From the UHGV virus genome UHGV-1366828: a stretch of 64,000 bases of DNA; one strand, given 5' to 3'. The DNA comes from a virus. Both the position numbers and the translations under genes were made by a program. Below are positions 19,272 to 38,050 of this stretch, one piece after another (position 1 is the first letter of the stretch; every line of letters begins with the position of its first letter). Below the pieces are notes generated by a model that was given only the letters and a program-made list of their open reading frames with translations, had not been told where the DNA came from and searched no databases.

Positions 19272-20879
19272 TTAGGTTTCCTCTCTTTTCAGAAGAGCAT
19301 CAATTTCATTGTTTGCTCTGTCAATTCTAGCTTTTGAATTTTGATTTGCATCATCATAATACTTCTTTAGAGAATCAATTCGACTTTCGTATTGTGCTTT
19401 TAGCTTATTTATTTTAGCATCTTGTTCTGCTTGTGAATTGTCTACGAACTGTTGTGCTTCTTTTCTTCTCTGTAAAATGTCTTTCATGTTACGAACATTT
19501 TTTGTCATTTGCTGGTTATCAGCTATACGTTCCATTCGTTGATACTTCGTACTATTCCAGTACTCGTCATTATTAACTTGGTGTTCTCTTTCATAATCAG
19601 GAGCCGGGGAAAAGTAGTCACCTACAAACCGATTAGCGTTTTCTCCGCGTTCTGGGCGTTTTCTTGCGCGATCTGCATAATTGATTTTGTCAAAACGTCT
19701 GTAGATACCTCCTGTTTTTGAATCTATTCTGGGTACTACATCGTCTCTATTAAAGATATACACGTTATTATTAGGAATGTCGCGTCTTACTGAGCCAACA
19801 TTCTTTATATATGTGTCTCTTCCTAAATTGTATTTCTGTAATACTGCTTTCTCCTCGGGAGTTAGAGATGCGTTGGCTCTCTCTTGTGTCTTTCTAAAAA
19901 TCTGTTTTAGAATTTCAGAGTCATGTTTGTCTTCGTCTGACATTTCAGCTTCATTTAAAGAGTTCAGTTTTTCTTCAATAGCACGTCTAAGAGATTCTTT
20001 TCTTAGCAGCTTGTTAATTTTGCTGGTTGCATCAGCTACACCTTGCTGACCTCTTTCAGACTCTTTCTGTCTTTGCTCATCAGCATATGCCATCGCATCA
20101 TCGAATCTTCTGCGAGCATCAGCAACATTTCTTGCATAATTCAAATTGACATTATCAAGATCTTTCTGATTTTCTTTTCTAGATGCTAAGGCCGCTTTCA
20201 TATCTCTTACTGGCTGAGACATCTGTTTATTTACTGCAACACGGTCCTTTTCTACATCGGTTAAATCCGCATCTGCGCCGCCGTTTCCTGCAATTGTAGC
20301 CGGCCTGTTATGCTCCTTATCCCACTGGTCCTGACCAAATCTTCCGGTATTATCATGCGTAAATGTATTGTCCCCAAAAGTGTCAACATCCGTAACTGGT
20401 GCATAATGAGACACTTTACGATACGGACGATCTTGAGCGGGACCTTTTTCTTTACGCTTTCTGATAAAGTCCGCAATATTAGTTTCTTTGTTAACTTTAA
20501 CTCTGTCAAGATCCCCTGCTAAGGTACGAATCTGCCTGTTTAGTCCAGATCCTCTCTCATAATCAACATCATTATCTTTGATAGGAGTGATGTCCCTGGC
20601 ACCATTCCACCTCTTAGTTCTTTGTGGAAGTGTTAGATTATATTTGTCTGCAATATCTAATTCTTGAGGTGTCCACCTAATAGCTCTTCGTTTATCATAA
20701 CTAAAATCTCTAGCTTTTGAAAGTATCTGACGAAGCACTTCATTGTCTCTTCTGTCTTCATCAGACATAGTAGCTTCCTTAAGTGTATTCAAGATAGAAG
20801 TTATCTGATTAACTACGCTTTCTTGAAGAACGTTGAATTGGTTTAATTCAAATCCTTCGTTTAGAAATTTTAAACTCAT
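19272..20879 (-). CDS. hypothetical protein with internal tandem duplication
   Basis: 535 aa. Two homologous halves (MSDEDRRDNEVLRQILSKARDFSYDKRRAIRWTPQELDIADKYNL... vs MSDEDKHDSEILKQIFRKTQERANASLTPEEKAVLQKYNL...). N-terminus MSLKFLNEGFELNQF resembles the shared N-terminal motif. Confidence 0.5.
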   Translation of the reverse strand: MSLKFLNEGFELNQFNVLQESVVNQITSILNTLKEATMSDEDRRDNEVLRQILSKARDFSYDKRRAIRWTPQELDIADKYNLTLPQRTKRWNGARDITPIKDNDVDYERGSGLNRQIRTLAGDLDRVKVNKETNIADFIRKRKEKGPAQDRPYRKVSHYAPVTDVDTFGDNTFTHDNTGRFGQDQWDKEHNRPATIAGNGGADADLTDVEKDRVAVNKQMSQPVRDMKAALASRKENQKDLDNVNLNYARNVADARRRFDDAMAYADEQRQKESERGQQGVADATSKINKLLRKESLRRAIEEKLNSLNEAEMSDEDKHDSEILKQIFRKTQERANASLTPEEKAVLQKYNLGRDTYIKNVGSVRRDIPNNNVYIFNRDDVVPRIDSKTGGIYRRFDKINYADRARKRPERGENANRFVGDYFSPAPDYEREHQVNNDEYWNSTKYQRMERIADNQQMTKNVRNMKDILQRRKEAQQFVDNSQAEQDAKINKLKAQYESRIDSLKKYYDDANQNSKARIDRANNEIDALLKREET

Positions 20880-20948: not shown

Positions 20949-21908
20949 TTACTCTAGTATCAATTGGTTGATGTAAGTTTTGTAATTTCCTACACCTTGT
21001 AACTGCCCTCCTACACTTATAATTTGATTTCCTGTAATGTCAGATAAATCCATGGTGTATGTAGTATCTGAGCTATTGAGTTGTACATACTTTGTGTATG
21101 TAGTATTGGTCGTAGAAGTATTACTTTGTCCTATCCCTACTAAGCCATAAGCGTTACCACTAGTGGTAGCATGACCTACAATGGTCAATGTAGAATACTC
21201 AGTCAGGTCAATTTCAGAAGAGTTAGCGCGGGCAGTGTACGTTCCGCTTCCCCTAACAACATAAAAGTATGCGTACAAATAACCATCAGAGTTCAGAGCA
21301 TACCCGTCTAAGCCGTTGTTTGTAAACGCTACACCGGCTGTACCATTGTTATAAACATAAAACTTTTCTTTCTTAGGAATCCACTCTCCGTTGACTTTAA
21401 GGTAAACCCCACTGGACTGTTGCCAAACTCCGTTTACCTTAACATACACAGCGTCTGCTAACTTCCATACACCGCCTACCTTAACATAAACTTCATTGGC
21501 AGTAACTTTTTCTGGCACAGTTAACGTAACGGAGCTTGCTGTATGCCCGCTTGAGCCGTCTTCCACCCCAGCACGTATTGTTGCCTCACTGTAAGATGCG
21601 GGAAACACTGCATACCAAGTAAATTTCAGACTGAAACCGTCACCTACGAGATATCTTTCTGAAGGAGACTCACTGTCTCCAGCCCATGCATGAAAGTAAA
21701 ACTGTTGAGTAGCATTGTAACCGGCGTAATTGGATGTGTACAACTTTACCCGAACGCACAGCTCATTATTCCGTAACCTTGCAATGGCGCATGCCGAATA
21801 AAACCTATACCCATAACTACCCTTTTTATATCTATAAACCACTGTACCACTAGTTTCTGTAGACCATGAAACTACATTACTTGGTTCAGTTGTCTTCCAT
21901 GTTGGCAT
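20949..21908 (-). CDS. hypothetical fibre-associated protein
   Basis: 319 aa, beta-rich, downstream of the tail fibre gene. Confidence 0.4.
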   Translation of the reverse strand: MPTWKTTEPSNVVSWSTETSGTVVYRYKKGSYGYRFYSACAIARLRNNELCVRVKLYTSNYAGYNATQQFYFHAWAGDSESPSERYLVGDGFSLKFTWYAVFPASYSEATIRAGVEDGSSGHTASSVTLTVPEKVTANEVYVKVGGVWKLADAVYVKVNGVWQQSSGVYLKVNGEWIPKKEKFYVYNNGTAGVAFTNNGLDGYALNSDGYLYAYFYVVRGSGTYTARANSSEIDLTEYSTLTIVGHATTSGNAYGLVGIGQSNTSTTNTTYTKYVQLNSSDTTYTMDLSDITGNQIISVGGQLQGVGNYKTYINQLILE

Positions 21909-21919
21909 AATAACACTCC

Positions 21920-23521
21920 TTATGTAGTAGGGTATTTAATATATATGTCTCCGTTATTTCCTGTCGAATTGTCAGGGACATCTGTGCCTTCTAGTATTGG
22001 ATGATATTCTTGTTGGTTTATGTATAACACACCCTCATTTACTCCAATCATCCATTTGTTCGTAACATAGGAAAATATACCGTGCCAAGAGTTATTTGAC
22101 TCGGGGCCTACATACATCGAAACAGACGTGTCAGGATTCGTACTGTGTACTCCCGGCAGATAATTAGAGTTGATATACAAAATATGTTTATGTAGTTCTC
22201 CGTCGGGAGAGATCTGCATCAGCAATATACTATCATCCTTATTATTATTATTTGCAGCTTGATAAAACTTATAGCAGCCACCAGTTTCATAGAAGTCTAT
22301 GCTATTATGGTCATGGTACCCGAAATCTATTGCATGGTTGTATCCGTCCGCACCTTCATTACGAAGTCTTCTAGCAGTAAGATACCCCGTATCGTTGTCT
22401 CCCGTACTCAGGTGAGGAGCCACGATAGATCCCGTTGCTGTACCTCCGGAAAGGGGCAGAAACATATTTCCTTCGACGATTAACAATGGCTCAGTTCCGC
22501 GCTTGCGGATTGTTATTGAATCACCCACACGCGTAAGTTCGATACTTCCGCCGGTAAGCTCGAACCACTCATTGTTCATTGCGTATACGACATTCATGTC
22601 ATTCAGCCATGAAAACGTGAATTTTCCAGCATACATATACTTAACAACGGTAAAGGAAAAGTCGGCGGGCAGAGCATTTAATTCGGTCAAGCCGCAGGTA
22701 AATAGGACGTCATTTGCAGATGTGTCGGCATAAACTATGCCCCCGTTGAAAGGTACTACATTTACAAATGTATAATTGCTATTGATCGACCAAGAAGGAG
22801 GCGTTTTTGCATCGTTTGCAAATTTCGCTCGAGTTACAATACCATCAGCAATATTATTCGTACCAACAGCCCCTGCATCAGAAGAGAGAGCACCCACATC
22901 TGCAGCGCCAAGATTTACTTCGCCCGTTTTCCCATTTACACTTGTAACAGGAGCAGACTGTAATGCAGTGTCTGCTTTTCCAAGGGACGCTTGAACTGCA
23001 TCCGATAAATCAGTTTTCGGAATTCCGCCCGCAGGTTTTGAATAAGTTCCAGTATTTTTTGTAAACCCTTTTGCAGCAACATCTTCTTCAAGAGTGGCTT
23101 TATCCTGTTTTCCACTTATGTCTTGATGTTGAGTAAGAAAGCCGGAGTCATTCTGTAACTCACTTGTCTTTGAAGGAATCGTGGGCTTATCGCTTAAATC
23201 AGTATAACTCCCACTAAAATTTGATGTTCCTGCACCTATTGCAGCTCTAGCCCCCGCAGCAGTACTTGCCCCTGTTCCGCCTGAGTCAAGGGGTAGTGGT
23301 GTTGTTTTAAAGGCTGCTCTAATAAATGTTTCAATCTTTGATTTTATTTCTGACCACAGAGTCTTCTTTGTTACTCCTGCACTTTTATCAAACTGTACAA
23401 GATAATCGTTGTCTTGTAATTCAGTTGTGATTGTGGCATACTGAATCTTACCTTCTTTATCAGACAAGTCTGTATAGACTACGGGGTCGTAATCTGAAGA
23501 TCTTTTACCTAAATATTTCAT
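21920..23521 (-). CDS. tail fibre protein
   Basis: 533 aa; repeated 'TDLSDKPTIPSKTSELQNDSGF...KTDLSDAVQASLGKADTALQS' motifs typical of phage fibre shafts; Gly/Ser/Thr-rich. Confidence 0.55.
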   Translation of the reverse strand: MKYLGKRSSDYDPVVYTDLSDKEGKIQYATITTELQDNDYLVQFDKSAGVTKKTLWSEIKSKIETFIRAAFKTTPLPLDSGGTGASTAAGARAAIGAGTSNFSGSYTDLSDKPTIPSKTSELQNDSGFLTQHQDISGKQDKATLEEDVAAKGFTKNTGTYSKPAGGIPKTDLSDAVQASLGKADTALQSAPVTSVNGKTGEVNLGAADVGALSSDAGAVGTNNIADGIVTRAKFANDAKTPPSWSINSNYTFVNVVPFNGGIVYADTSANDVLFTCGLTELNALPADFSFTVVKYMYAGKFTFSWLNDMNVVYAMNNEWFELTGGSIELTRVGDSITIRKRGTEPLLIVEGNMFLPLSGGTATGSIVAPHLSTGDNDTGYLTARRLRNEGADGYNHAIDFGYHDHNSIDFYETGGCYKFYQAANNNNKDDSILLMQISPDGELHKHILYINSNYLPGVHSTNPDTSVSMYVGPESNNSWHGIFSYVTNKWMIGVNEGVLYINQQEYHPILEGTDVPDNSTGNNGDIYIKYPTT

Positions 23522-24037
23522 TTAACTTTTCACTCCATATATAAGGCAGTACCAATAAGTTCCTATAAACGAGATATACCCTGTCGCATTAACCACTCCA
23601 TTTTCAACATTTATGTATGAATTACTGTTTGTATTCGATTCGATGATCCACACATCTCGTATGACACCACCAGCTGATGCAACAGGTGCCGCATTACTGA
23701 AATACCCGAACGATTTTTTAGAAGTAAAAAACAACTGCTGAATACTAGCAGGAATATCTTCCCGAACATTCCAGTAATTTGTACACAGGAGATATCCTGC
23801 CAGTATATTATCTGATTTAGGCAGTGTCCATGTTGTAGCTGAGGTATTGAACGTTACGGTTCCAGTAAGTATCTCCGTGAAGGGTGCTACATCTGCAACA
23901 TTCAAGGAAGAGATCTCTTGTGGCATCTGATTCAATGTCATTGTAGAAGTTTTTCCGGACTTACTACGTATTGCATCAGCAACGGACGTTAATTTACTGT
24001 CGAATGCTGTTGAATCTATTGCTTTGTCAATTGCCAT
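23522..24037 (-). CDS. hypothetical fibre-region protein
   Basis: 171 aa ORF abutting the fibre gene (stop/start adjacent). Confidence 0.4.
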   Translation of the reverse strand: MAIDKAIDSTAFDSKLTSVADAIRSKSGKTSTMTLNQMPQEISSLNVADVAPFTEILTGTVTFNTSATTWTLPKSDNILAGYLLCTNYWNVREDIPASIQQLFFTSKKSFGYFSNAAPVASAGGVIRDVWIIESNTNSNSYINVENGVVNATGYISFIGTYWYCLIYGVKS

Positions 24038-24087
24038 TAGTAGTTACCCCCCCCCGTGTATACTGGTAGCTGATTTAGCATTGCTTG

Positions 24088-24798
24088 TTATACTGCTGCG
24101 GGTGTTTGTACGGGTCCGATTATTATAACTCTGAATTCTCCTGCGGGAATATTCGTACCGGAAGGGGCTCGAAAAGCATATGTGGAGATGCTCATATCAT
24201 AATACAACCCAACAGTAACACTGTAGTCAGTGGGGGAAACTTTTACGTCACCTAGTACCTGTTCCCCCGTTGACTTATATATCGAAACCAATACATTGTT
24301 AGAGCTGAACCCGTGGTCAGACGCAGGAATTGTCCAAGTAAAATAACCATAGTCATCTCCAAAAGTTTCAGGATTCTCCGCAGAATATACCGTACAAGGA
24401 ACCAACGTACCCGTAATTGTTTCCCCCTTTGCATTATGTGCTGTTGTTCCTAGCAGTAATGTTTCTGGCGATACTGTGTCAGAGGTTAAGTCCAACACAG
24501 TAACGCCGTTTAGATCTACTTTATTCACATTGGAGGCCGGAAGTAGCATTGCATTACTTCTTAGAAATTGAAGTAAGCTACCCACAGGATAGTCATCCAT
24601 CTCGATAATTTTATACCCATCGTTTGTCCACCCTGATGAAGCGCTGTATGCAACATATTGACCGTCTGAAACATATAGTAATGTATTAGCGGTTACACTG
24701 ATTTGTTGAAATGTTTTTCCATTGCTCCTAAATGGAATATAATAACTACCTGTAGGAGATAACGTTAAAACATCTTTAAACTTCCATTTGTAAGACAA
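24088..24798 (-). CDS. hypothetical structural protein
   Basis: 236 aa ORF. Confidence 0.4.
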   Translation of the reverse strand: MSYKWKFKDVLTLSPTGSYYIPFRSNGKTFQQISVTANTLLYVSDGQYVAYSASSGWTNDGYKIIEMDDYPVGSLLQFLRSNAMLLPASNVNKVDLNGVTVLDLTSDTVSPETLLLGTTAHNAKGETITGTLVPCTVYSAENPETFGDDYGYFTWTIPASDHGFSSNNVLVSIYKSTGEQVLGDVKVSPTDYSVTVGLYYDMSISTYAFRAPSGTNIPAGEFRVIIIGPVQTPAAV

Positions 24799-24804
24799 GC
24801 GTCA

Positions 24805-25395
24805 TCACGCTCCGATCTTCAGTGTCTGACCTCCAGCTTCGTTGTCAGTGTAAGTAACAGGAATTGCATTGACTGTGACAGATGACAGGTAGTTGTAATC
24901 AGGACTGTCAGGTGTAACCTCTTGAGCTTCAAATGTTGGGGTTACAGTTTTTGCTTGAGGCTTTGCATCTTCTGTTCCTGACATTGTACCCGTTACACCA
25001 AGGATTGCAATACCGTCACGAATATTTTCAGGAATGATCTTTGCAGCTTCTGTCGGGTCAATCTGAGCCTTACCGGAGCCATCGTGGAAGCCCATCGGAA
25101 TTGTTACAGGCGTTGCCTTCTTTGTTATGTTAAGTGTCTTAGCGCCGTTGTTCGGCATCGTACCGGTAATTTTTGCACCGGCCTTGTAAGCTGTTTTACC
25201 TAAAAGAATCTCTGCTGCAGTAGCAGTAGCGTCTTTCGTATCAGCGTCAAACGTACTAGTACCTACAATAGGTGCGCCTGACTTGTCGTGAGCCTTTATA
25301 CCTTTTGCAAGTTTTTCAGGTGTAATATCGTCTTGCGTAAGGTCAAATTTTACTTCTTCGCCAACAATAAGTTTATTGATATATGTATTTGGCAT
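24805..25395 (-). CDS. hypothetical structural protein (Ig-like/fibre-like)
   Basis: 196 aa; Gly/Thr/Ala-rich beta pattern. Confidence 0.4.
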   Translation of the reverse strand: MPNTYINKLIVGEEVKFDLTQDDITPEKLAKGIKAHDKSGAPIVGTSTFDADTKDATATAAEILLGKTAYKAGAKITGTMPNNGAKTLNITKKATPVTIPMGFHDGSGKAQIDPTEAAKIIPENIRDGIAILGVTGTMSGTEDAKPQAKTVTPTFEAQEVTPDSPDYNYLSSVTVNAIPVTYTDNEAGGQTLKIGA

Positions 25396-25396
25396 A

Positions 25397-25672
25397 TTAG
25401 TCTACTCCTAATATAAGTGTTTTTCCCCCAGCGTCATTTCCGACTTCATACTGGGGAATCTTTAATACAGTTATGTCATCTTTAGGAACTGTTCCCTTTG
25501 TTGGTAATTCGATATCTTGATATAACTTAGGTGTTACTTCATATGGACCTTTGTAAGGTAACCCTGTACCGGTTACTAATGCAGCTTGAAACTCAAAATC
25601 TAATGGGTTTATTGGTGTTGCTTCAAACGATATCTTCGGCGTATTTATCTCAAAAGAGACAACAGGTCTCAT
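25397..25672 (-). CDS. hypothetical protein
   Basis: 91 aa, overlaps upstream gene by 4 nt. Confidence 0.35.
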   Translation of the reverse strand: MRPVVSFEINTPKISFEATPINPLDFEFQAALVTGTGLPYKGPYEVTPKLYQDIELPTKGTVPKDDITVLKIPQYEVGNDAGGKTLILGVD

Positions 25673-25977
25673 ATAATCTCCTTAGATAACGATACGTCAA
25701 CATCTATTTTTTGAGTAGGAGTTTTAAACACATCGCCATTCTCAAACTTTATTCGAGCCTGAGCCTCTACAATTCTAGGAAGCGAAAACGTCTCTTCCTG
25801 TGTTACAGGGAAGAAAAACGTACCGTCCGAAAACGAAACTTCATCCGGATACATCCGTGTTGTATCGTGCAATGTAAATTCAATCTTTTCAACATTTGAA
25901 ACATCTAGTGGTTCATCGTTGAATTTAATTGTCATTGCTATGTTATATTGGTCTCCCTGAGAAATTCTACCGGACAT
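25669..25977 (-). CDS. hypothetical protein
   Basis: 102 aa ORF. Confidence 0.35.
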   Translation of the reverse strand: MSGRISQGDQYNIAMTIKFNDEPLDVSNVEKIEFTLHDTTRMYPDEVSFSDGTFFFPVTQEETFSLPRIVEAQARIKFENGDVFKTPTQKIDVDVSLSKEII

Positions 25978-26024: not shown

Positions 26025-26555
26025 TTATTTGTTCTTGTCCCACTTCTTGTCATACCAGGAAGGAGCATCGTATTCAACTAGCCCTGATTTCAATAACGCG
26101 ATTTCTGTGACTGTCTTTCCGCCGACACTAAATTGAACAAGAATGCCATCATAGCCCTGTTCTCTAGCTATCTTGTGATAAAATACTTGTAAATCATCCA
26201 GACCCGTGGACATTCTATAGAAAGAATCTTTATACTTAATATATACAAAATTTCCTTCTTTAGTACGTTCACGAGCAATTATTCGTGTTCCAAGAATATC
26301 GTTCAAGTCATTTCCTAAATACACACTGGTTACATCAGGCTGTTTTCCAAGGTCTATGAGATTGACTTTATCTAAATCTATTACAGAGGTTAACAGGGCT
26401 CCTTCGTCATCTGTACCGTCTTGCCAATATGATGTAGCCTCGTCTTTGGAAACAGTCCACCACTCAGCTCTTCCGTCCCCTTCTACATTCGGCTGTAGAC
26501 CTTTAATAACCCCTCTATAGACTGGAATTTTTTCTTCACGTAGTAAAAATCTCAT
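26025..26555 (-). CDS. hypothetical protein
   Basis: 176 aa; overlaps the SWIM protein gene by 4 nt. Confidence 0.4.
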   Translation of the reverse strand: MRFLLREEKIPVYRGVIKGLQPNVEGDGRAEWWTVSKDEATSYWQDGTDDEGALLTSVIDLDKVNLIDLGKQPDVTSVYLGNDLNDILGTRIIARERTKEGNFVYIKYKDSFYRMSTGLDDLQVFYHKIAREQGYDGILVQFSVGGKTVTEIALLKSGLVEYDAPSWYDKKWDKNK

Positions 26556-27415
26556 TCGGCGTTCTCCGAATCTGAAATTAGATTATCAAAATCAATCTGT
26601 CGTTTCATTGGCCTGTTCTGCTTTTGGAATCTGTACTCGTTACCCTTCTGGAACTGTGTCTTAGTTCTTGCCCACTTGTTGGCAACATTAAGTAGATCTT
26701 TATCTGCACTAACTGAGATGTCGGGTTGTCCTTCTTCTGGTTTCTCCTCAGGCGGCTGTAGTTGTAGCTGAACATCGCCCGTATACTCACGTTGATATAT
26801 CGCAGGATATATTACATCTGCATACATGTTAGGGTAATGTTGTTCCATGTATCTGATGTAATTAAAGATTACAGAAGCTACTTTAGTTAGCCAACTATTA
26901 TTTGACAACACTAACAGTATATGTTTGCAACCCCTGCCCTTGGTGTCATTTGGGTTTGTAATATTAGAAGGCCTAGTTTCCTTGTCTCCTACAATAATGT
27001 CATGCACGCTTAGATAATAGCCAAATCTATACTGAAAATCGGGACAACTACATCTAACGTAAACATTCTCCCCGTTAAAGGAGCTTACAAGAGCTCTGAT
27101 AACACACCGTAGGTTTAATACGTCATTGTTTGCTGCTAGTTGTTTGTGTATTTGGTCAAGTACTTCTCCAAAACTGATTCGAACAATATAATCGTTAGTT
27201 TCTCCTCTTACTTTTACGTCTACGTCAAGAATGTTATTCTGGAAGAACTTATTCATATCAATGGAATTCATTTCTCTTACAGAATTAGCAACTCTGCTAT
27301 GTAGACGTCTTTCATAACGATTCTTTCCACGAAACTGATTTTCAGGAGCATAATTATCTGCGTGTTTTGAGTTTGAAATCAGCTCTTGTCTCTTATCTTC
27401 TAAAAGTTTGTTCAC
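26552..27415 (-). CDS. SWIM zinc-finger domain protein
   Basis: 287 aa; 'RCSCPDFQYRFGYYLSVHDI...GRGCKHILLVL' fits the SWIM CxCx(n)CxH signature (C-x-C-P-x-F ... C-K-H-I). Confidence 0.55.
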   Translation of the reverse strand: MNKLLEDKRQELISNSKHADNYAPENQFRGKNRYERRLHSRVANSVREMNSIDMNKFFQNNILDVDVKVRGETNDYIVRISFGEVLDQIHKQLAANNDVLNLRCVIRALVSSFNGENVYVRCSCPDFQYRFGYYLSVHDIIVGDKETRPSNITNPNDTKGRGCKHILLVLSNNSWLTKVASVIFNYIRYMEQHYPNMYADVIYPAIYQREYTGDVQLQLQPPEEKPEEGQPDISVSADKDLLNVANKWARTKTQFQKGNEYRFQKQNRPMKRQIDFDNLISDSENAE

Positions 27416-27440
27416 AGAATAATTATACCTCCTTCTTTAA

Positions 27441-28070
27441 TTATTTTGTAGCTACGATTAGTTTTCCTTTTACTTCAACATTATCTTGACCAAACACTTC
27501 GCCAATCTCTTCAGCGTAGTCCTCAAGCTTCATAAATGTTTGATACTTATCTCCGCCAGTAGGTCTACCTTGACCTGTACCAGCACCCGCACCACAACCA
27601 ACATATACATCAAAATAAGCAGTTCCACCAGGCTTCAAAATTGAGTAAATATTTGCTATGATTTCATTTACTCTAATGTCTTTTTCTTTTACAACATTCA
27701 GAACATTAGCGCAAGTTGCTGTGTCAGTGTGTCCGCCGACTTCGTCGAGTTTGTCAAGAGAAGCACTCTGCTCTTCTGCACTTTGATTATACTTATCAAA
27801 CCCAATATAGTCTACGCCCTTTTCAGCTAAGAAATTAGCAATCTGAGCCTGAGTTGTTGCTTCCCCACAACCGTAGTCAAAATTAACAGTCCCGGGCTTC
27901 CAGTTACGAACGTTCTTGAATAGAGCAGGGACTCTACCCATTCCTTTATTTGCTACGCCGTTACCATGAGCAGTTGACTTGGAAGTGAACTCCTGTTCCT
28001 TGTCATAGGAAAATCTTCCTTCTTCCAAGGCCTTTAGCTTGTCGAAAGCTTCACTAATAATATAGTTCAT
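27441..28070 (-). CDS. class I SAM-dependent methyltransferase (substrate unknown; no DPPY/NPPY)
   Basis: 209 aa; motif I 'NFDYGCGEA', acidic post-I 'YIGFDKY', 'CANVLNVV', 'LKPGGTAYFDV'. N-terminus MNYIISEAFDKLKALEEGRFS shares the N-terminal motif. Confidence 0.65.
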   Translation of the reverse strand: MNYIISEAFDKLKALEEGRFSYDKEQEFTSKSTAHGNGVANKGMGRVPALFKNVRNWKPGTVNFDYGCGEATTQAQIANFLAEKGVDYIGFDKYNQSAEEQSASLDKLDEVGGHTDTATCANVLNVVKEKDIRVNEIIANIYSILKPGGTAYFDVYVGCGAGAGTGQGRPTGGDKYQTFMKLEDYAEEIGEVFGQDNVEVKGKLIVATK

Positions 28071-28092
28071 TTATGACCTCACACGTTAACAA

Positions 28093-28410
28093 TCAAGAAT
28101 TATAGAATAGTCTACGTAGCTGTGCCTTAACAAGGGCAGTAACAAGCTGGTCAGCAACTGAAAATTGATCCTTGTAATCTGCTGTGTCATAATCCTCTTT
28201 GGCCCACTTTGCGTCATATTCACGCACCAAGGTCTGAATGTCTTCAGGGTCAACATAAAGGCCGGGGCTGTCAAGAAATTCCGAAACCTGGTCCTCATAA
28301 AAGTCTTCAAGAATGCCGTAAACCTTATTACGAGCCTGTCGATAATCCTTTTCAAGCTCCTCAGCTTCATTCAGTTTACGAAAAGATTCATTTACTAATG
28401 CTTTATTCAT
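28093..28410 (-). CDS. small acidic protein sharing the N-terminal motif
   Basis: 105 aa; MNKALVNESFRKLNEAEELEKDY...; the overlapping alternative frame 28086..28370 is rejected. Confidence 0.45.
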   Translation of the reverse strand: MNKALVNESFRKLNEAEELEKDYRQARNKVYGILEDFYEDQVSEFLDSPGLYVDPEDIQTLVREYDAKWAKEDYDTADYKDQFSVADQLVTALVKAQLRRLFYNS

Positions 28411-28415
28411 ATTAT

Positions 28416-29153
28416 TTACTCCTCAAATAGATTTATAAACTTCCCTGTGTATATGTAATGTTCAAGGGACAATTTTCTTGACAAACAATTCGTTAACGCT
28501 TCCTTCAATAAAGAAAGCTCTCCTCGGTCACGTAACGTTTTAAAGATTTCATTCCCTCTACCGTATTCTCCTTCAATAGAAATTGAATTCTTTCGCATTA
28601 AGTAGAGGGCATCTAAAACATCAGTAATCTGCTCGTAGTCCTTTGACGTAATTGCCGCGTGAATTCTTTCAGTCCAAGCATCTAATTCTTGTGTTAGATC
28701 TCGCTTCTCAATCGTAATTGGTTTGGGTTCTTTCACCCACTTATTTCTACGAATAGAATAAATACCGTTAGATTGAACGGACGAATGTAAATCTTCAACA
28801 TAGAGTTCAACAGGAATTTCTTTTATCTTTATGTCAAATTCTTTATTGAAAGCTGTCTTCTTTAGATTAAAGACTAACGTCTGTATATCTTCAGGAACAC
28901 CTTCTGTTAGTTCAGTGTTAACAATTAAGTGAACATCGATGTCGGAATGCTGTGTATAGTTGTAAGATGCATTACTTCCTACCAAAACTACATCTACAAT
29001 ATGCATCGGTATTTCAACATACTCTTCAAAATTGTCTGCAATTTCAAGTAGCTTTTGTCTAACTTCAGGTATCAATGTGTTATCTTTCCATAACTTTGGG
29101 TTTAAAGTTTCATGCAACTGAAAATCTTCAAGTACGTTCTTCATATGTCTCAT
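28416..29153 (-). CDS. Pol-beta superfamily nucleotidyltransferase (KNTase/ANT(4')-like fold)
   Basis: 245 aa; 'VVLVGSNASYNYTQHSDIDVHLIV' matches the hG[GS]x9-13Dh[DE]h motif. Size and N-terminal helix resemble kanamycin nucleotidyltransferase. Start overlaps the upstream small ORF by ATGA. Confidence 0.6.
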   Translation of the reverse strand: MRHMKNVLEDFQLHETLNPKLWKDNTLIPEVRQKLLEIADNFEEYVEIPMHIVDVVLVGSNASYNYTQHSDIDVHLIVNTELTEGVPEDIQTLVFNLKKTAFNKEFDIKIKEIPVELYVEDLHSSVQSNGIYSIRRNKWVKEPKPITIEKRDLTQELDAWTERIHAAITSKDYEQITDVLDALYLMRKNSISIEGEYGRGNEIFKTLRDRGELSLLKEALTNCLSRKLSLEHYIYTGKFINLFEE

Positions 29154-29419
29154 AAAAGATCCGCCAATCTAATAATGTCTGAACTAGAAATCTTATTATT
29201 ATGGTGAAGAGCAGTATGTGCGCTGCTTCCGTGTTCAGAGCTTTTTCTTACCAGACTAAGATTAGTTATACTATAATTAGAGTGGTCTTTATCTTCATGA
29301 TGTAACACCCAATCATCAGGGTCAATTGAAACTCCTGTAAGATACTGTACTAAAGCACACACTACTTTTTTGGCTTCGGTCTGCCCTCTAAATCCTTCTT
29401 CTAGTAATTTAAATCTCAT
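29150..29419 (-). CDS. small protein translationally coupled to the nucleotidyltransferase
   Basis: Probable start at internal ATG 29419 (MRFKLLEEGFRGQTEAKK..., 89 aa); the longer 135 aa ORF would overlap the QueH-like gene by ~150 nt. Confidence 0.35.
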   Translation of the reverse strand: MRFKLLEEGFRGQTEAKKVVCALVQYLTGVSIDPDDWVLHHEDKDHSNYSITNLSLVRKSSEHGSSAHTALHHNNKISSSDIIRLADLL

Positions 29420-29939
29420 TCTTTGAATACTCACACCCACAATAATTCTGTTGATATAAATTATACTTCTCGCACAGTTGCAATGATCTAGGAAACAGAT
29501 ATCCGAAATCAAACGGCATATACATAACTCCCACAGACCCGCCAACAGCGGTTCCAATACTGTTTATAACAGCTGAATCTTTATACGGACTGATTGTTAA
29601 TGTAGTTGAAAAATATCCAAATCCATTATTGTTTGCATATATTGCAGCACCCTTCAATCTCTGACCGATACATACCTTGCATCTTTTTCCACCCTCGGGT
29701 TCATTACTTAAAGAAGAACATGCGTTATAATATTCCTCCGGATAGAAATCTGCAATAACTACCGGTACATTATAAAGTTTACCGAGTCGGATAAGCTCGT
29801 CGGATCTTTTATAGTATTCAATTTCATCTGTAATACAAGGATTGTAATAATACAACGTTATATCAAAATACTTTGAGTACTCATCAATAACAGCACTACT
29901 ACAGGGTGCGCAACAAGCATGAAGTAATAATTTATCCAT
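29409..29939 (-). CDS. queH: QueH-family (DUF208) epoxyqueuosine reductase homolog
   Basis: 176 aa from ATG 29939 (GGAGG 11 nt upstream). 'MDKLLLHACCAPCSS...YYNPCI...EPEGGKRCKVCIGQRL...TTLTISPYK...LYQQNYCGCEYS' matches conserved QueH Cys motifs (LLLHxCCAPCS, EPEGGxRC, NYCGC). Confidence 0.65.
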   Translation of the reverse strand: MDKLLLHACCAPCSSAVIDEYSKYFDITLYYYNPCITDEIEYYKRSDELIRLGKLYNVPVVIADFYPEEYYNACSSLSNEPEGGKRCKVCIGQRLKGAAIYANNNGFGYFSTTLTISPYKDSAVINSIGTAVGGSVGVMYMPFDFGYLFPRSLQLCEKYNLYQQNYCGCEYSKNEI

Positions 29940-29956: not shown

Positions 29957-31369
29957 TCAATTCTTTTTCCACATGTAACATGACTGACCACAATCATATA
30001 TCTCTACAAAACTGTGTGCGATCATTAACTCATCGTTTGATGTTCCTTTACCATAATGTGTTCCAAATAGCTGGTCAAAGCCTCTTTGTCTTAACAGGTT
30101 GTCTGTAATATGTTGACCCGTGTTTATGTTAAACCAGTGTCGTGTTGGAATACCATAATCGCGAAGTTCAAACCCCAAGGAAGTATAAACGTCGCCGTTA
30201 AATTTACTGTTATCACAATAGGATATAATGGACGACGGAGAATAGTTCTTTACAAAATAACTAAATAACTTTTCAGCTCCGCCAACTACATATCTGTGAG
30301 AACAGTATCTTATAAGCTCGTATTCGTAATTCTTGTTATATCTTGGACGACCGAACGTCATAATTGAAACTAGTTCATCATTACAGTAAAGTCCCAAATC
30401 AATTGTGCTTTTAGCATAACCTTGTAGATGATATTTGTTCAGATAATTTATACAATCTTTCTTGTTGACTTGTTTTACAACACAGTTACGAGCATATACT
30501 TTTTCTCTGGGCAGAAGCAAAGAAACAATTTTATCCCAATCATCCCAATCCCAAACATGAATACATCTATAGCCGTTATCTTGAGCTACTTTACTCTTCT
30601 TATAATGATAATCTTTCTGAAGTGTTGTTGACCCAGGAATAGGACAGAATGTCACGTTGTGACAAGGCCAAGGATTTATTTCTATAAGAATGTCGTTTAC
30701 TTTGAAGTCGTATTTAAAATGTTTGTTGTCATATCCGATGTAGAATTCTCTTGTATATTCAATTCCTGCAGTATCCAACAATTCTGAAAACTTGGCGTTA
30801 GGCTTACTATCATTTGTATATTTTGCAAGGGCAAAAGAATTTACAACTCCATACTTGTCAAGGTTTGTAGCTGACCTTGCATGTTTAGCATGCTCAATCT
30901 TTTCTGGAACATTGAAATAATGTTTGTATCGTTCTTCAATTAGATGTTGTAATTCTTCATGAGATTTTTTACCCCATGCAGCTTTACAACCTTCCGACAC
31001 CTTTTCATAATGTTCTTCTTTTGTTATCCCCTTGCTTTGTAGATTGGCAAGCATCGTAGCGTAAACTTGTTTGTCATATTTTTCTTTGCTTCCTGCATTC
31101 TTATACTTAGTTTTAAGAACTAACCTTGCAGACTGCTTGCGTGGCTTTCTTATACCGTATTCTTTTATGACTTTATCTAATGTCCAAGATGTAATGTTGT
31201 ACTTCTTCATCAGAAAGTCATAAGTACAGTTTTTATTCAAATATAAATCCGTAATTTCTTCACGTGGAATTTTTGACAATACATTCTTTTCAAACTTTTC
31301 TCTGTTAATTCTTTTAAGAGTTTCTGATGTTCCATTAGACATTTTACTGTTACTCCTGTGTGTAAACAA
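29957..31369 (-). CDS. free-standing homing-endonuclease-like protein (N-terminal repeated DNA-binding modules, Vsr/PD-(D/E)xK-like core, conserved C-terminal domain)
   Basis: 470 aa; paralog of 31457..32959 (C-terminal ~190 aa clearly alignable: KVYARNCVVKQV...YHLQGY...MTFGRPRY..YEYELIRYCS..GGAEKLF). Core 'DFKVNDILIEINP...GYRCIHVWDWDD' resembles the nuclease segment of the fragment at 63416..63709. Confidence 0.5.
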   Translation of the reverse strand: MFTHRSNSKMSNGTSETLKRINREKFEKNVLSKIPREEITDLYLNKNCTYDFLMKKYNITSWTLDKVIKEYGIRKPRKQSARLVLKTKYKNAGSKEKYDKQVYATMLANLQSKGITKEEHYEKVSEGCKAAWGKKSHEELQHLIEERYKHYFNVPEKIEHAKHARSATNLDKYGVVNSFALAKYTNDSKPNAKFSELLDTAGIEYTREFYIGYDNKHFKYDFKVNDILIEINPWPCHNVTFCPIPGSTTLQKDYHYKKSKVAQDNGYRCIHVWDWDDWDKIVSLLLPREKVYARNCVVKQVNKKDCINYLNKYHLQGYAKSTIDLGLYCNDELVSIMTFGRPRYNKNYEYELIRYCSHRYVVGGAEKLFSYFVKNYSPSSIISYCDNSKFNGDVYTSLGFELRDYGIPTRHWFNINTGQHITDNLLRQRGFDQLFGTHYGKGTSNDELMIAHSFVEIYDCGQSCYMWKKN

Positions 31370-31375
31370 ATAAAA

Positions 31376-31410
31376 AAATATGGAGAAGGGAGCTAAAGTC
31401 CCCTCCCCAT
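31376..31410 (-). terminator. candidate intrinsic terminator between the two tandem homing-endonuclease-like genes
   Basis: Minus strand GGAGGGGACTTTAGCTCCCTTCTCC followed by ATATTTTTTTATTTG; contains the 11-nt motif AAGGGAGCTAA also found at 34810-34820. Confidence 0.35.
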
Positions 31411-31456
31411 AATATATTATAAGGTGTTTCTAAATTGTAAACAACTTGACCGTCTC

Positions 31457-32959
31457 TCAACTGAAAAATGTGTACTTGGCTTGACCCGCATCATATACCT
31501 CTACAAAACCGTGTTGAATCATCAGTTCTCTATTTGATGTGCCTTTACCATAATTGGTATGAAACAGATTGTCAAAGCCCACTTTGTTTACAGAAGAATC
31601 TAGTATATGTTGTTTACTATTCATGTTGTACCAGTGTTTACTAATATTTATACTTTCCAAGGTCATGTTTAATTTCTGGTACACATTACCAGAAAATTTG
31701 CTCATATCACAGTAGGAAACAACCGATTTTGGAGAATACTTCTTTACAAAATAATCAAACAGTTTCTCCGCTCCTCCAATAACAGACTTACAACTACAAT
31801 AACGAATCAACTCGTATTCATACTTATCTGTATACCGAGGTTTACCAAACGTCATCAAAGAGATTAAATCGTCATTGTAAAATAGACCGACTGCTATGTC
31901 CGAAGATATATAACCTTGTAAATGATAGTTATTTAGAAACTCTTTCGTTTCTTCTTTAGGTAGTTCTTTAACAGTACATTTTCTGGCATATACTTTTTCT
32001 TGAGGACGAAGTAAAGAAATTATCTTCCCCTTATCATCCCAGTCCCAAATATGAATACACCTGTAACCATTCTGAGAAGCTAACCTAGATTTGTCTCTAT
32101 GATATGTAGGACTTTTAACGTTATCATCACCAAAAGGTGACCATGTTGAATTGTGTGTAGCAGAAGGATTTACTTCTACTAGTATATTTTGTCCTGTTAA
32201 TTCAAAATCAAAACTTTTGTTAATAAGTGTTTTTTCTCTACTGAATTCTATGTTGTTATCAGACAACAATATTCCAAATTCTTGATTAGGAGAAGATAGA
32301 CTGCTGTTCCCCTTACTAAATTGACATTGAGGAAGCAATGTAGGAAACTCTACTCCATACTTTTCTAAGCATGTTTGCTTCATGCTCTCTATAGCTTTTT
32401 CACGACTGCCAGGAAGCTGAGAAACATTTGTTATACCGTATCGTTCAATCAAGTTATTTTTCTGAGATTCTGCTATATGATCATAGGCTGCAGAAATTGA
32501 ACCATAAGTTCTAATAAAACCTTCTTGAACTAGGTCAACACGTTGAAAAGGATTGTCTACACCATATCGTTCTTGGCAAGTCTTTTTAATTTTCTTCCGA
32601 ATATCTGTGTTACCCGAAGCTGATGGTGTCCCGTATCTTTCAATACACGTTTCCTTAATCTTTTCTGTGTTGTTGTAATTAGGGTCTCCATATCTAGACT
32701 CTTTGGATTGCTTTATCCGATTCTTTATCGTATCGGATTTTGACGGATTGTCTACACCGTACTTCTCTATGCAGGTATATCTAGTTTCCTGTTGTCTACT
32801 ATGAATCGGAATGCCTTGTTTCTCAAGAGCATTAACAACTACATACTTTGACGTATTATAATGTTTAGAAATATAATCCGCAGAGTGCGAACTATACAAC
32901 CTTTCCAGTTCTTCTTTGTTTACAAAATCAAGAAATAGCTGTGTTTTATTTTTTCTCAT
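31457..32959 (-). CDS. free-standing homing-endonuclease-like protein (paralog of 29957..31369)
   Basis: 500 aa; N-terminal repeated ~25 aa 'YGVDNPxQ...I(K/R)xT' modules (at least 5); core 'FDFELTGQNILVEVNP...GYRCIHIWDWDD'; conserved C-terminal domain. Confidence 0.5.
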   Translation of the reverse strand: MRKNKTQLFLDFVNKEELERLYSSHSADYISKHYNTSKYVVVNALEKQGIPIHSRQQETRYTCIEKYGVDNPSKSDTIKNRIKQSKESRYGDPNYNNTEKIKETCIERYGTPSASGNTDIRKKIKKTCQERYGVDNPFQRVDLVQEGFIRTYGSISAAYDHIAESQKNNLIERYGITNVSQLPGSREKAIESMKQTCLEKYGVEFPTLLPQCQFSKGNSSLSSPNQEFGILLSDNNIEFSREKTLINKSFDFELTGQNILVEVNPSATHNSTWSPFGDDNVKSPTYHRDKSRLASQNGYRCIHIWDWDDKGKIISLLRPQEKVYARKCTVKELPKEETKEFLNNYHLQGYISSDIAVGLFYNDDLISLMTFGKPRYTDKYEYELIRYCSCKSVIGGAEKLFDYFVKKYSPKSVVSYCDMSKFSGNVYQKLNMTLESINISKHWYNMNSKQHILDSSVNKVGFDNLFHTNYGKGTSNRELMIQHGFVEVYDAGQAKYTFFS

Positions 32960-33108: not shown

Positions 33109-34131
33109 TCAGGCCTTGATCTTACCCGCTACCAGGAGGCTAGGATTGAGAAGCTTCAGGTCGTACATCGTACTCCAGCCTTGTGTGGTTCCACCATCGG
33201 CGAACTGAAGCAGCTGAGTAGGAACAACGCTCATGTAAGGAGCATAAACAGCGGCGGAGCTCATTAAATCGCTGCCGTTGACACCTACAATGAACTTACC
33301 AGCTTCAAGAGCAGGAGAAACGAACACCTTAAGAGAACCGAGAGTACCAGCGAAGTAAGGACCGTTAACATCGCTCACAGGAGCAGGAGTCCAGTCACGA
33401 ATGAAAGCAAACACCGGAAGAAGGTCGCTGGCGCAAATCATGTAGTTAGGAACAAATTTCTTTGTACGGTCGTACACTACGCGCTTGGCATCTTCAACAG
33501 TTTCCATGAATCCCTGATAGTGCTCTGTTTTGGAAACACCTACATTAGGAGTCTTGCTCCATTCAAGGGTTGTGTCGGTCGGGGTATTGTCGATAAGAAG
33601 CTGAACAACTTCTGTGTCGATTTCATATTCGAGCTGACCAACAGCCTTCTCTGCAAGCTGGTCACCAAGGTCGAAACCGTAGTCGGTCTTAGCCTGGAAA
33701 GCAGCAATCTGAGAGTAGTAAACAGCGATACGACGAGCCTTCGCAACAAGAGCGATATTCTTCATCTCTGCCTTGAGCATCGGAAGGTCGTTCTGAGGAA
33801 CAACTACGTTGTCGTAGTAATAAGCTACACGGTCAGTGGCAACAAGAGTTGTGGTAATTGTCTTGCCGTCAGCGCCAACATTCACATAAGTGGGATCACC
33901 AGTTGCGTGAGTAACCTTAACGTCGTACTTAACGCCGTCCTTCTCAAACGCGCCCTTAACAACAGGAGTCCAGGAAAGAGCAAGAGAAGCACCAGCCGTC
34001 GGAGTTTCAACAACACGGTCACCAGTGTAATCAGCATCGACATCGCCGAGAGCGAACGGGCTGTTCAGAAGCTTACCAGCAGTGGTCTGACCCTTGGTCT
34101 TACCAGCAGTATACTCAATGTAAGTTATCAA
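33109..34131 (-). CDS. major capsid protein (putative)
   Basis: 340 aa; follows the protease/scaffold-like gene in head-module order; markedly GC-richer, codon-optimised composition typical of the most abundant virion protein; strong hairpin downstream (33040-33070). Confidence 0.55.
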   Translation of the reverse strand: MITYIEYTAGKTKGQTTAGKLLNSPFALGDVDADYTGDRVVETPTAGASLALSWTPVVKGAFEKDGVKYDVKVTHATGDPTYVNVGADGKTITTTLVATDRVAYYYDNVVVPQNDLPMLKAEMKNIALVAKARRIAVYYSQIAAFQAKTDYGFDLGDQLAEKAVGQLEYEIDTEVVQLLIDNTPTDTTLEWSKTPNVGVSKTEHYQGFMETVEDAKRVVYDRTKKFVPNYMICASDLLPVFAFIRDWTPAPVSDVNGPYFAGTLGSLKVFVSPALEAGKFIVGVNGSDLMSSAAVYAPYMSVVPTQLLQFADGGTTQGWSTMYDLKLLNPSLLVAGKIKA

Positions 34132-34157: not shown

Positions 34158-34742
34158 TTATACTAATTTTTTGAAGGGATTTGTTAACCTTCCTCTAACA
34201 TAACCTTCAGGAGGATCGCCAATAAACATATGCTCTTCTTTTCCGTTATTCCACCAACGAGAACCTTTATGTGCTTCTATACTTCTTTGTATAGAATATT
34301 CCGTGGGTTTCTGCCCTTTACTAGATTCTCTCATCTTGAGAATTGTTTCTTCTGAGCGTTTCTTACCAGTATTCGCTTTAGCTCTTTTTAGTTTAGTTTC
34401 TTCAGATTGTTTTTTTCCTGTCCAGTAAGCTAACTTGTACCTTAATTCTGGAACAAGATTAACATTACCGTCTCCACCATCAGTTAGATTATACCCATTA
34501 GGATATCTACACTGTAGCGTTTCAATCCAGAAACTTTCTTTTTCGTTTAATTCTTCAAGAGTTTCAGCTGTATCAATAAGCTCTCGCGAAAAATTTTCTA
34601 GCCCATAGAACTTAATGCTACTTTTAATATAAGTTCCGCTAGTAATGTAATTCTCATCAAGTTTTGGAAAAGAATATTTATGTTTACCAACATACACTTT
34701 ATGTGTAATCAGGTTTGTTAGTTTATACACATAACCATACAT
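34158..34742 (-). CDS. GIY-YIG homing endonuclease with NUMOD3-like repeats
   Basis: 194 aa; N-terminal 'YGYVYKLTNLITHKVYVGKH...' matches GIY-(x10-11)-YIG; C-terminal 'TGKKQSEETKLKRAKANTGKKRSEETILKMRESSKGQKPTE' are NUMOD3-type repeats as in I-TevI/Seg proteins. Confidence 0.75.
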   Translation of the reverse strand: MYGYVYKLTNLITHKVYVGKHKYSFPKLDENYITSGTYIKSSIKFYGLENFSRELIDTAETLEELNEKESFWIETLQCRYPNGYNLTDGGDGNVNLVPELRYKLAYWTGKKQSEETKLKRAKANTGKKRSEETILKMRESSKGQKPTEYSIQRSIEAHKGSRWWNNGKEEHMFIGDPPEGYVRGRLTNPFKKLV

Positions 34743-37099: not shown

Positions 37100-38050
37100 T
37101 TAAAAAACAATCTTATCGTCAATCTTAGGCGGGTCATTTTTAATCTCTTTTCTTGTAATAGCTGTATATGCAGGCTTTGCTGCTGTATTCACATAAGTTT
37201 CAGAAACGGGATAAAAATCTCTATAACCTCTTGCCCATGTTTGTTTGACAATTTCTCTTGCTAAATCAGTTCTGCCCTTTGCATACTGCAAAAGATGTTC
37301 TAGTCTCATCTTCCATTGGGTGACATTTATTGATTTATACAATTTCTGATCCACTAAATAATTGTTTACATATTCAGCAAGATCTGTATCAGAGATAAGT
37401 TCAAAAGTTAAATCAGTACACTGTTCTAGATTAGATTTCTTCTTTGGCTTTGTAGCTATCTGTTTAGTTTCATTTTCTAAAAGATTAGATACTTTTCCTG
37501 AATTGTTAATAAACGGTGTAGCTGTTAAAACTATATTGTTATTTTTATTTGTTAATGGTATATTGTTATTATTTGTCTTTACTGAGTTAAGATCTTGTTC
37601 TTTACTTTCTTTACTACTTGCTGTTAACTCAGTTAAGCACTTATCACAAGTTTCTTTACTACTTGTTGAGTCCTGGTCGTTATTATTATCTTCATCGTCT
37701 TCAAGCAATATAGCGTAGAACTGTTCTTCATTGATGCGAAAGTATCTTTTAGCAGGCATTCCTGCTACTTTAACATCAAGTATTTTCAATTCTACAAGAT
37801 GCTTAATAATTGAACGTTGTTGATAATCAGACAACGTTGTCGATTCCATGACATTTTCAACAGTGCTATAGAAATAGCCGTCATCTGTCAGGCTGTGCAT
37901 TTTATTCCAGTAGTCATACTCTGAAATAATTTCGCCAAGAAAAATACTCTCGTGGAGTCCTATCTTCTTGGCGAGTGTTTTATTATATAGCCCGTAATTG
38001 TTACTGGCGAATTGTGTTAGCAATTTCTTTTCTCTGATTGAAAGCCCCAT
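37100..38050 (-). CDS. hypothetical protein with N-terminal helix-turn-helix-like region and acidic/Asn-rich linker
   Basis: 316 aa ORF. Confidence 0.4.
   Translation of the reverse strand: MGLSIREKKLLTQFASNNYGLYNKTLAKKIGLHESIFLGEIISEYDYWNKMHSLTDDGYFYSTVENVMESTTLSDYQQRSIIKHLVELKILDVKVAGMPAKRYFRINEEQFYAILLEDDEDNNNDQDSTSSKETCDKCLTELTASSKESKEQDLNSVKTNNNNIPLTNKNNNIVLTATPFINNSGKVSNLLENETKQIATKPKKKSNLEQCTDLTFELISDTDLAEYVNNYLVDQKLYKSINVTQWKMRLEHLLQYAKGRTDLAREIVKQTWARGYRDFYPVSETYVNTAAKPAYTAITRKEIKNDPPKIDDKIVF

Follow-up and report, generated by a model that had tools for sequence, protein, structure and literature searches.

We analysed a 64,000-nucleotide stretch of the viral genome UHGV-1366828 (the window) and focused on a block of seven minus-strand genes at positions 26025–29939. 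In the order of transcription, the genes encode a QueH-family protein (176 aa; 29409–29939), a small HNH-like open reading frame (ORF; 89 aa; 29150–29419), a Pol-beta nucleotidyltransferase (NTase; 245 aa; 28416–29153), an acidic protein (105 aa; 28093–28410), a class I S-adenosylmethionine (SAM) methyltransferase (209 aa; 27441–28070), a SWIM zinc-finger protein (287 aa; 26552–27415), and a 176-aa ORF (26025–26555). They are tightly packed and sit between the major capsid protein gene and a gp13-like neck gene, within a T4-type morphogenesis module that matches Portal_T4, Peptidase_S77, Gp23, Phage_T4_gp13, sheath, Phage_T4_gp19 (tube), and T4_baseplate. An earlier annotation made from the letters alone (the original prediction) had described five tightly packed, co-oriented genes between the capsid and tail genes and read them as one nucleic-acid modification or counter-defence system, or as a set of virion-packaged enzymes. 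The ORFs that it listed are all present on the minus strand, and the packing, the orientation, and the capsid-side boundary were as described; the range additionally holds the 176-aa ORF, which had not been described, and the other boundary is the neck gene. Profile searches upheld the domain calls, except that the small ORF is probably an HNH-like endonuclease gene. The conserved unit of the locus nevertheless appears to be a pair, the NTase and the SWIM protein, and not the five genes.

To assess the constancy of the block, we compared 28 window proteins by tblastn with 28 related IMG/VR loci (related loci are referred to by L-numbers). In the closest relatives, L003–L006, the flanking genes are 95–99% identical, whereas the NTase is only 67% identical; because such a divergent gene lies inside near-identical flanks, it resembles an allele swap, and the divergence next to the slot of the HNH-like ORF suggests either allele replacement or diversifying selection. 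The homologs of the NTase in the protein database fall in two allele groups, with 87–96% and at most 70% identity. The acidic protein is similarly replaced by a 38% identical allele in L003, and its family is found between the NTase and the SWIM protein throughout L003–L009. L007 and L008 lack both QueH and the methyltransferase, and L009 has QueH and two copies of the acidic protein but no methyltransferase. Since QueH, the methyltransferase, and the acidic protein have been gained or lost individually among near-identical relatives, the genes do not form a fixed five-gene module, and the region is a hyperplastic spot, composed of optional genes and one conserved pair. The proposal of a single five-gene system thus fails on the ground that the original prediction had itself named, the block not being constant in close relatives: QueH and the methyltransferase can be absent, and the NTase and the acidic protein have been swapped. 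Genes of a phage structural operon can be tightly packed and coupled by ATGA without forming a system, and it was the comparison of near-identical relatives that set the one conserved pair apart from the interchangeable accessory genes.

The NTase matches NTP_transf_2 (E 6e-5) and phrog_36119 (E 1.6e-44), and its catalytic residues G59, S60, D71, D73, and E116 are invariant in 22 homologs. The protein consists of an NTase core with a Pol-beta-like alpha/beta fold and a C-terminal helical domain. The description of the protein as a Pol-beta/KNTase-like enzyme therefore stands for the motifs and the fold but not for a KNTase profile match: we found no match at the family level, NCBIfam ANT(9) scoring 13.4 bits against a cut-off of 340 and MntA 13 against 60. 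The KNTase/ANT enzymes, MNT antitoxins, CD-NTases, and TENT enzymes share with it the Pol-beta fold, the GS...DxD...E motifs, and a helical domain after these, but the similarity is at the fold level only, and the NTase here has no HEPN partner. A HEPN-like toxin was considered as a partner and rejected, because the acidic protein lacks histidine as well as the Rx4-6H motif and the ORF upstream resembles an HNH gene. No defence system could be assigned: the PADLOC matches were generic NTase ones and weak, and nothing exceeded the NCBIfam cut-offs.

The SWIM protein has the predicted CxCxnCxH signature, with C122, C124, C163, and H165 invariant in 27 homologs and also in 74 extended relatives; the match to Pfam PF04434 is borderline (20.1 bits against a cut-off of 19.6). 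The N-terminus of the protein is basic (pI 9.9); the CxC...CxH finger and a helical region come next, and the acidic tail, which is disordered, has a conserved Q-x-DFD-x-L motif at its end. This module of ~270 aa has 578 close homologs, a profile search returned 683 clusters at 50% identity, and the module appears to be an undescribed family with no Pfam, PHROG, or PDB assignment. We determined the protein architectures for the best 150 of the 683 clusters and carried out a Pfam census on 74 extended representatives. In 102 of the 150, the complete SWIM module forms the C-terminus of a longer protein and is preceded by an extension of 100–1100 aa. The census found ART-PolyVal, an ADP-ribosyltransferase (ART) domain, in 16 extensions, NUDIX, SprT-like, and LRR_5 in 2 each, and NTP_transf_2 in 1, most extensions being without a known domain. 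At the DNA level, we confirmed two extended proteins, an ART–SWIM form of 768 aa in L049 and one of 664 aa in L021. No significant match of the methyltransferase, QueH, the acidic protein, or the 176-aa ORF fused to the SWIM module was found among the 150 representatives.

In 31 of the 150 representatives, the SWIM module is split by insertions of 110–490 aa within the CxC region. All 16 insertions that we read have intein-type junctions, at one of two sites: CS|C...HN|CPD and CPDF|C...HN|CYRF. Insertions of this kind at two sites inside the CxC region single out the zinc finger as the functionally critical site of the module. Intein-like insertions are seen in homologs P0101 and P0241–P0385 and at locus L060 5212–7086, and a frequency of 31 in 150 is unusually high for an uncharacterised protein. 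Some of the relatives probably use recoded stop codons, namely L015 (also L014, L016, and L020), L039, and L042, and possibly L059 and L061. The SWIM gene of L015 contains three in-frame TAG codons, at least one of them where the homologs have Gln, and reading through TAG raises the ORF coverage from 0.21–0.72 to 0.87–0.98, with L059 and L061 behaving likewise for TGA. The genetic code of the window is the standard one.

The SWIM gene is the core of the locus across the lineage. In all 46 loci it was found within the morphogenesis module, where it takes at least four positions: behind the capsid gene, between the tail tube and hub genes, between two neck-region genes, and upstream of the genes preceding the portal. 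The NTase is directly upstream of it in three classes of loci, in the interval from the major capsid protein to the neck, in that from the tube to hub258, and upstream of p312/p519/portal. In L012, the NTase and the SWIM protein form a single in-frame ORF of 499 aa with no stop in between, and a search of the 150 representatives with our own hidden Markov model (HMM) of the NTase revealed NTase–SWIM fusions in P0244, P0263, P0267, and P0363, clusters that are distinct at 50% identity; two of the four also have insertions at the intein site. Adjacency that survives relocation, together with repeated fusion, is strong evidence for a functional link between the two proteins. It also speaks against the view that all genes of the block are unrelated accessories in an insertion hotspot, none of them functionally linked. 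That view draws on the high turnover and on the homing endonucleases on both sides, and it stays true for QueH and the methyltransferase; as an account of the whole block, including a pair that has kept together in three positions and been fused in several lineages, we regard it as highly improbable.

The fusions relate the locus to the polyvalent proteins of phages and conjugative elements. The study that sets out this concept and ART-PolyVal (Iyer, Burroughs, Anand, de Souza, Aravind 2017, PMC5512222) proposes that such proteins arrive with the DNA and act at an early stage of infection. SWIM is mentioned there once, for SWI2/SNF2 ATPases, and the SWIM module of the window is not described; the NTase reported there for conjugative elements (PMC5512222) is a minimal MNT/NTox45-like domain that is joined to ArdC-N, unlike the 245-aa two-domain enzyme found here. 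The SWIM relatives resemble polyvalent proteins in joining ART-PolyVal, SprT-like zincin, NUDIX, and Pol-beta NTase domains in one polypeptide and in being encoded beside virion morphogenesis genes. In the window, by contrast, the domains are separate genes: the multidomain arrangement is seen only in relatives (L012, L021, L049, and the 102 of 150 representatives), and the signature domains belong to the SWIM family and not to the SWIM protein of the window. The family also differs in having a C-terminal SWIM module in place of MuF, and the census contained no Pfam family of the polyvalent-protein domains (LPD).

We propose that the locus is a split, polyvalent-protein-like effector locus built on a SWIM carrier, whose enzymes are delivered into the host with the DNA, and we consider the chances of this being correct about even. 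The NTase and SWIM genes, here with the coupled 176-aa ORF, would be the split form of a multidomain effector; the SWIM module would be the constant carrier, to which relatives attach enzymes N-terminally and beside which these lie as separate genes in this phage. Carrier and partner enzymes would enter the prohead or bind the packaged DNA, would possibly be trimmed at L/I-x-E sites, and would then reach the next host with the DNA, where the enzymes would modify host targets for takeover or counter-defence. We infer packaging because enzymes that need cytoplasmic substrates sit in a late structural operon, because the phage has a T4-type head and a gp21-type protease, and because the relatives are polyvalent-type fusions. 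The earlier idea of virion-packaged enzymes or counter-defence is thus favoured by the SWIM fusion architectures, for the NTase–SWIM core only. A broader version, which we hold more tentatively and judge to have somewhat less than an even chance, is that the SWIM module defines a new and widespread protein-delivery platform of gut and rumen T4-headed myophages, of which the window represents the unfused state; the NTase would then be an injected effector, and the cargo of the platform, fused to the module or encoded beside it, would comprise ART, NTase, NUDIX, a SprT-like protease, and many unknown domains, which the gp21-type protease would release at L-x-E linkers and which would be injected with the DNA. 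If the SWIM protein is a cargo carrier, this would give a name to a large uncharacterised family and provide a pool of candidate host-takeover and anti-defence enzymes in gut and rumen phages, and, after the T4 capsid targeting sequence, a second natural tag with which proteins could be packaged in phage engineering. The NTase–SWIM pair would be a case of a polyvalent protein that was broken up into adjacent genes and joined again.

The models for such delivery are the Alt enzyme and the internal head proteins of T4, together with the polyvalent proteins. In T4, a capsid targeting sequence (CTS) is combined with gp21 cleavage after Glu, including at both termini of Alt (PMC9026906). The locus resembles that of the T4 internal head proteins IPI–III and Alt in belonging to a genome with a T4-type capsid, portal, and Peptidase_S77, in being polymorphic, and in having candidate L/I-x-E leaders and short common leaders on unrelated proteins (in L047, L017, and L045, detailed below). 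T4 Alt is a packaged and injected ADP-ribosyltransferase, and ART is the commonest partner of the SWIM module. On the other hand, there is no sequence homology to the T4 proteins, the leader motif is not specific to the locus, and T4 has no SWIM carrier.

The candidate processing signals were studied across the SWIM family and the late genes. A junction of the form L-x-E-x-L-L-x-E is conserved ahead of the SWIM module (bins of 30, 58, and 100, against ~8 expected), and 40 of the 102 extended SWIM proteins have [LI]xE within their first 12 residues, against 14% expected. Within the block, L/I-x-E leaders are found on the SWIM protein, the methyltransferase, the 176-aa ORF, and the HNH-like ORF, and V-x-E on the NTase and the acidic protein, and they are conserved in homologs; similar leaders are seen on the methyltransferase (MNYIISEAFDKL), the acidic protein (MNKALVNESFRKL), and a neck-region protein (MNYLSEAFKKL). 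At L047 11706–13681, three consecutive ORFs downstream of the SWIM gene have a near-identical leader of 16 aa (MSRIVESLYGKYNL[KN]E) and unrelated bodies, and the ORFs at L017 10929 and L045 11480 have only a 22-aa leader, MKL[QN]EFTDRLY..., in common. Recurring linker motifs are NESL-x-LNES and L[NT]EARNPENDEVNA.

We rejected the N-terminal leader as a mark peculiar to the locus: it shows no enrichment near the SWIM gene compared with the rest of the structural module, and being common across that whole module, it cannot serve as a specific tag. The N-terminal motif [LIV]-x-E-[SAGDN]-[FLMY], within the first 16 residues, is present in ~13% of the late-module ORFs, against ~1.6% expected from its internal frequency. 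It is found in the window at 16464–17783, 19272–20879, 27441–28070, 28093–28410, 28416–29153, 29150–29419, and 55282–55788 as well as in many ORFs of L003–L064, and it is conserved within families, for example in a 439-aa neck-region protein. The motif may serve in targeting or processing, or it may reflect a preference that N-termini have in general.

The 176-aa ORF, possibly a third component, starts in an ATGA overlap with the SWIM stop codon and is kept after the SWIM gene in L003–L009. Its family is narrow, with 20 proteins, and it has no Pfam match, including to ART-PolyVal (PF18760). Aligned by hhalign to the ART-PolyVal domains of the SWIM-fused relatives, it gave 132 collinear columns with weak scores (E 0.0017, probability 15%), the YRG / WWT / E-I motifs of the ORF being paired in this weak alignment with YHG / YFT / E-I of the ART domains, and it was the best of 41 window proteins against the ART HMM (E 0.0018). 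The ORF may thus be a divergent ART-like domain, which we treat as a lead and not as an assignment.

Several observations weigh against the delivery proposal. Solo homologs of the NTase are present in phages of Maribacter and Caulobacter, in Lak phages, and in T4-like cyanophages; those of the cyanophages lie in replication regions, and therefore the enzyme does not need the SWIM protein. The leader motif was defined post hoc, [LI]xE is present in the first 14 residues of 17 of 67 window proteins, the [LIV]xE motif is found in 26 of 188 ORFs within 3 kb of the SWIM gene and in 31 of 263 farther away in the same loci, and a baseplate-hub-like protein has it too. With its 15% probability, the assignment of the 176-aa ORF to ART is weak, and a literature search found no virion proteome of any relative, packaging, cleavage, and injection being inferred. 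Finally, the SWIM gene is a lineage-wide core gene and lies among neck genes in SP-15-like phages, which a structural or assembly role fits equally well. The neighbours of the NTase in two cyanophages were also compared with the acidic protein and found to be unrelated to it, and a two-gene module of the NTase and a small partner was rejected.

The structural role can be formulated as a rival in its own right: the SWIM protein would be an ordinary neck, head-completion, or DNA-end protein, the NTase would, during assembly, have this protein, a different virion component, or the phage DNA as its substrate, and the fused enzymes would ride on a structural protein as toxin domains do on MuF-type (Phage_Mu_F) proteins. 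The presence of the SWIM gene in every relative examined, always inside the morphogenesis module, agrees with this, as do its location between neck-module genes in SP-15-like Bacillus and Listeria phages, whose SWIM homolog is short, and in L014–L016 and L020, and the intein-type insertions at its most conserved site, which are typical of essential proteins. True structural genes keep their synteny, however, whereas the position of the SWIM gene shifts among its different places, and we found no structural similarity to solved neck, tail, or head proteins. Homology to the DNA end protector T4 gp2 was tested with hhalign and rejected (probability 0.4%). We consider this rival unlikely on its own, and it overlaps with the delivery proposal in that a structural anchor ejected with the DNA would satisfy both. 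The polymorphic toxins and effectors that MuF (SPP1 gp7) anchors in phage heads offer a comparison: there, too, enzymatic domains of great variety are fused to a conserved module, which is virion-associated. The polarity is reversed, MuF being N-terminal with a variable C-terminus and SWIM being C-terminal with a variable N-terminus, and MuF has no homology to SWIM and no Phage_Mu_F match in the census. Although not homologous to the SWIM protein, T4 gp2 (L079 2062–2886) also begins with an I-N-E-S motif (MAIFQIINEST).

A further explanation is that the SWIM protein and the enzymes are not packaged at all and act late in the producing cell, the Q-x-DFD-x-L tail tethering them to DNA, RNA polymerase, or the sliding clamp. 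The basic N-terminus, the zinc finger, and the acidic C-terminal motif resemble DNA- or partner-binding tails, and the acidic tail may be comparable to the clamp-binding tails of T4 gp43, gp33, and gp55; the location of the cyanophage NTase homologs among replication genes points the same way. Set against these, the SWIM gene lies in a late structural operon in 46 of 46 loci, no replication or transcription genes adjoin it, and partners such as ART-PolyVal and SprT-like domains typically belong to proteins for which delivery alongside the DNA has been proposed. We think that late action probably does not explain the locus and prefer the delivery of the enzymes with the DNA.

QueH is a variable accessory gene outside the conserved unit. 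The call of a QueH-family epoxyqueuosine reductase homolog was borne out by a full-length match to Pfam QueH (PF02677; profile 1–175/175, 185.1 bits against a cut-off of 23.5, E 1.6e-54) and by the cysteine motifs HACCAPCS (CCAPC), RCKVCI (CxxC), and YCGCE (CGC) in the translation; CCxPC, CxxC, and CGC are the Fe-S-cluster cysteine motifs expected of the family. The gene departs from the family pattern in being phage-encoded and solo in a structural operon, without queuosine genes nearby. Among the relatives it was found in L003–L006 and L009, and it is sporadic across phages (25 of 50,697 records). The window contains tRNA-Val(UAC) and tRNA-Tyr(GUA) within 63162–63383, the latter detected by ARAGORN at 63297–63383 on the minus strand; they belong to an array of at least 10 tRNAs that reaches just past the window (L037 98–5701). 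tRNA-Tyr(GUA) is one of the queuosine-carrying tRNAs, and ~20% of the late-gene codons are NAY. As the phage carries this tRNA and the Pfam-annotated parts of the window contain no other queuosine genes (Tgt/DpdA, QueC/D/E, or FolE), the simplest and most likely reading is that QueH acts separately in tRNA maturation, where it would complete queuosine on GUN-anticodon tRNAs, both those of the host and the phage's own tRNA-Tyr.

This reading of QueH bears on the explanation that the five genes form one nucleic-acid modification pathway, with QueH, the NTase, and the methyltransferase modifying tRNA or phage DNA. The tight co-oriented packing and translational coupling favour such a pathway, and nucleic acids are conceivable substrates for all three enzymes. 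Such a pathway is largely refuted, however, by the independent absence of QueH and the methyltransferase from near-identical relatives; moreover, the queuosine genes named above were not found in the Pfam-annotated parts of the window, the methyltransferase has no DNA-methyltransferase motif IV, and the NTase travels with the SWIM protein and not with QueH or the methyltransferase. We give a joint pathway very little credence, and the tRNA/DNA modification system of the original prediction is not supported, tRNA-Tyr(GUA) giving QueH a rationale of its own.

The methyltransferase itself was confirmed as a class I SAM enzyme by a match to Methyltransf_23 (30.2 bits against a cut-off of 27, E 4.4e-7) and by its motif I, DYGCGEA. 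As predicted, it has no DPPY/NPPY tetrapeptide: of the motifs of DNA amino- or C5-methyltransferases, the 209-aa protein contains neither motif IV, (D/N/S)PP(Y/F/W), nor the catalytic PC(Q), and the Pfam and NCBIfam scans gave no match to a DNA-methyltransferase family. Among the tblastn loci it was found only in L004–L006, and a scan of IMG/VR returned the same three contigs; it is absent from L003 and L007–L009, and only one weak match was seen among 50,697 phage records. It thus appears to be a recent, lineage-restricted accessory gene. The acidic protein was likewise present as described (pI 4.45) and contains no recognised domain.

The small ORF overlaps the end of QueH, and its stop codon overlaps the NTase start as ATGA, as had been noted. 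It contains HHEDKDHSNYSITNL and matches HNH_3 weakly (E 5e-4, 20 bits, under the cut-off of 24.8) and PHROG HNH endonuclease families also weakly (E ~4e-4). In L003, its place is taken by a different, longer ORF that also starts with MRFKLLEE and has a putative HNH-type motif, as judged by eye. The ORF is probably a selfish endonuclease and its place a slot for selfish elements.

Other mobile genes surround the capsid gene. The T4 gp23-type major capsid protein gene (340 aa; 33109–34131, minus strand; phrog_138, PF07068) had been described as carrying homing-endonuclease insertions, but it is intact, with residues 1–340 aligning to relatives, and is flanked and not interrupted by free-standing endonuclease genes, all of them variably present in relatives. 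On one flank, the minus strand encodes at 29957–32959 two free-standing homing endonucleases of 500 and 470 aa (phrog_3339/559, DUF7487). These are paralogs, ~48% identical over their C-terminal ~350 residues, and a terminator scan placed a strong terminator-like hairpin between their genes at 31379–31411. On the other is a GIY-YIG endonuclease gene (34158–34742). The GC content of the capsid gene region is 0.478, against ~0.35 in its surroundings. The T4 gp21-type prohead protease (Peptidase_S77; 506 aa) is encoded on the minus strand at 35432–36952 (phrog_207, PF03420), and by Pfam the genome has a T4-type head gene set of PF03420, PF07068, and PF07230. Megablast against 50,697 phage records gave no match for 10 kb and hence no close cultured relative; the contigs with identical proteins are metagenome assemblies, the sample name of one pointing to the human gut, and related contigs of 123–137 kb are found in faecal and rumen metagenome-assembled genomes.

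Some further features of the window deserve mention. A second variable block, absent from L007–L009, lies at 20949–25977 between the 176-aa ORF and a 535-aa protein; it comprises ORFs of 102, 91, 196, 236, 171, 533, and 319 aa. Several of these have repeats like those of fibre or decoration proteins, and the block includes a match to phrog_13589. Between the portal and prohead protease genes, at 37100–38050, is a 316-aa ORF with weak PHROG matches to 'replication initiation O-like' proteins, which is kept at the same place in L003–L009, an odd location for such a protein. Two further genes may be of interest for DNA hypermodification, as distant SP-15-like relatives have hypermodified thymidines: a pyridoxal phosphate enzyme resembling serine hydroxymethyltransferase or an aminotransferase is encoded at 50726–51919, and a dUTPase/dCTP-deaminase-like gene lies at 61586–62326.

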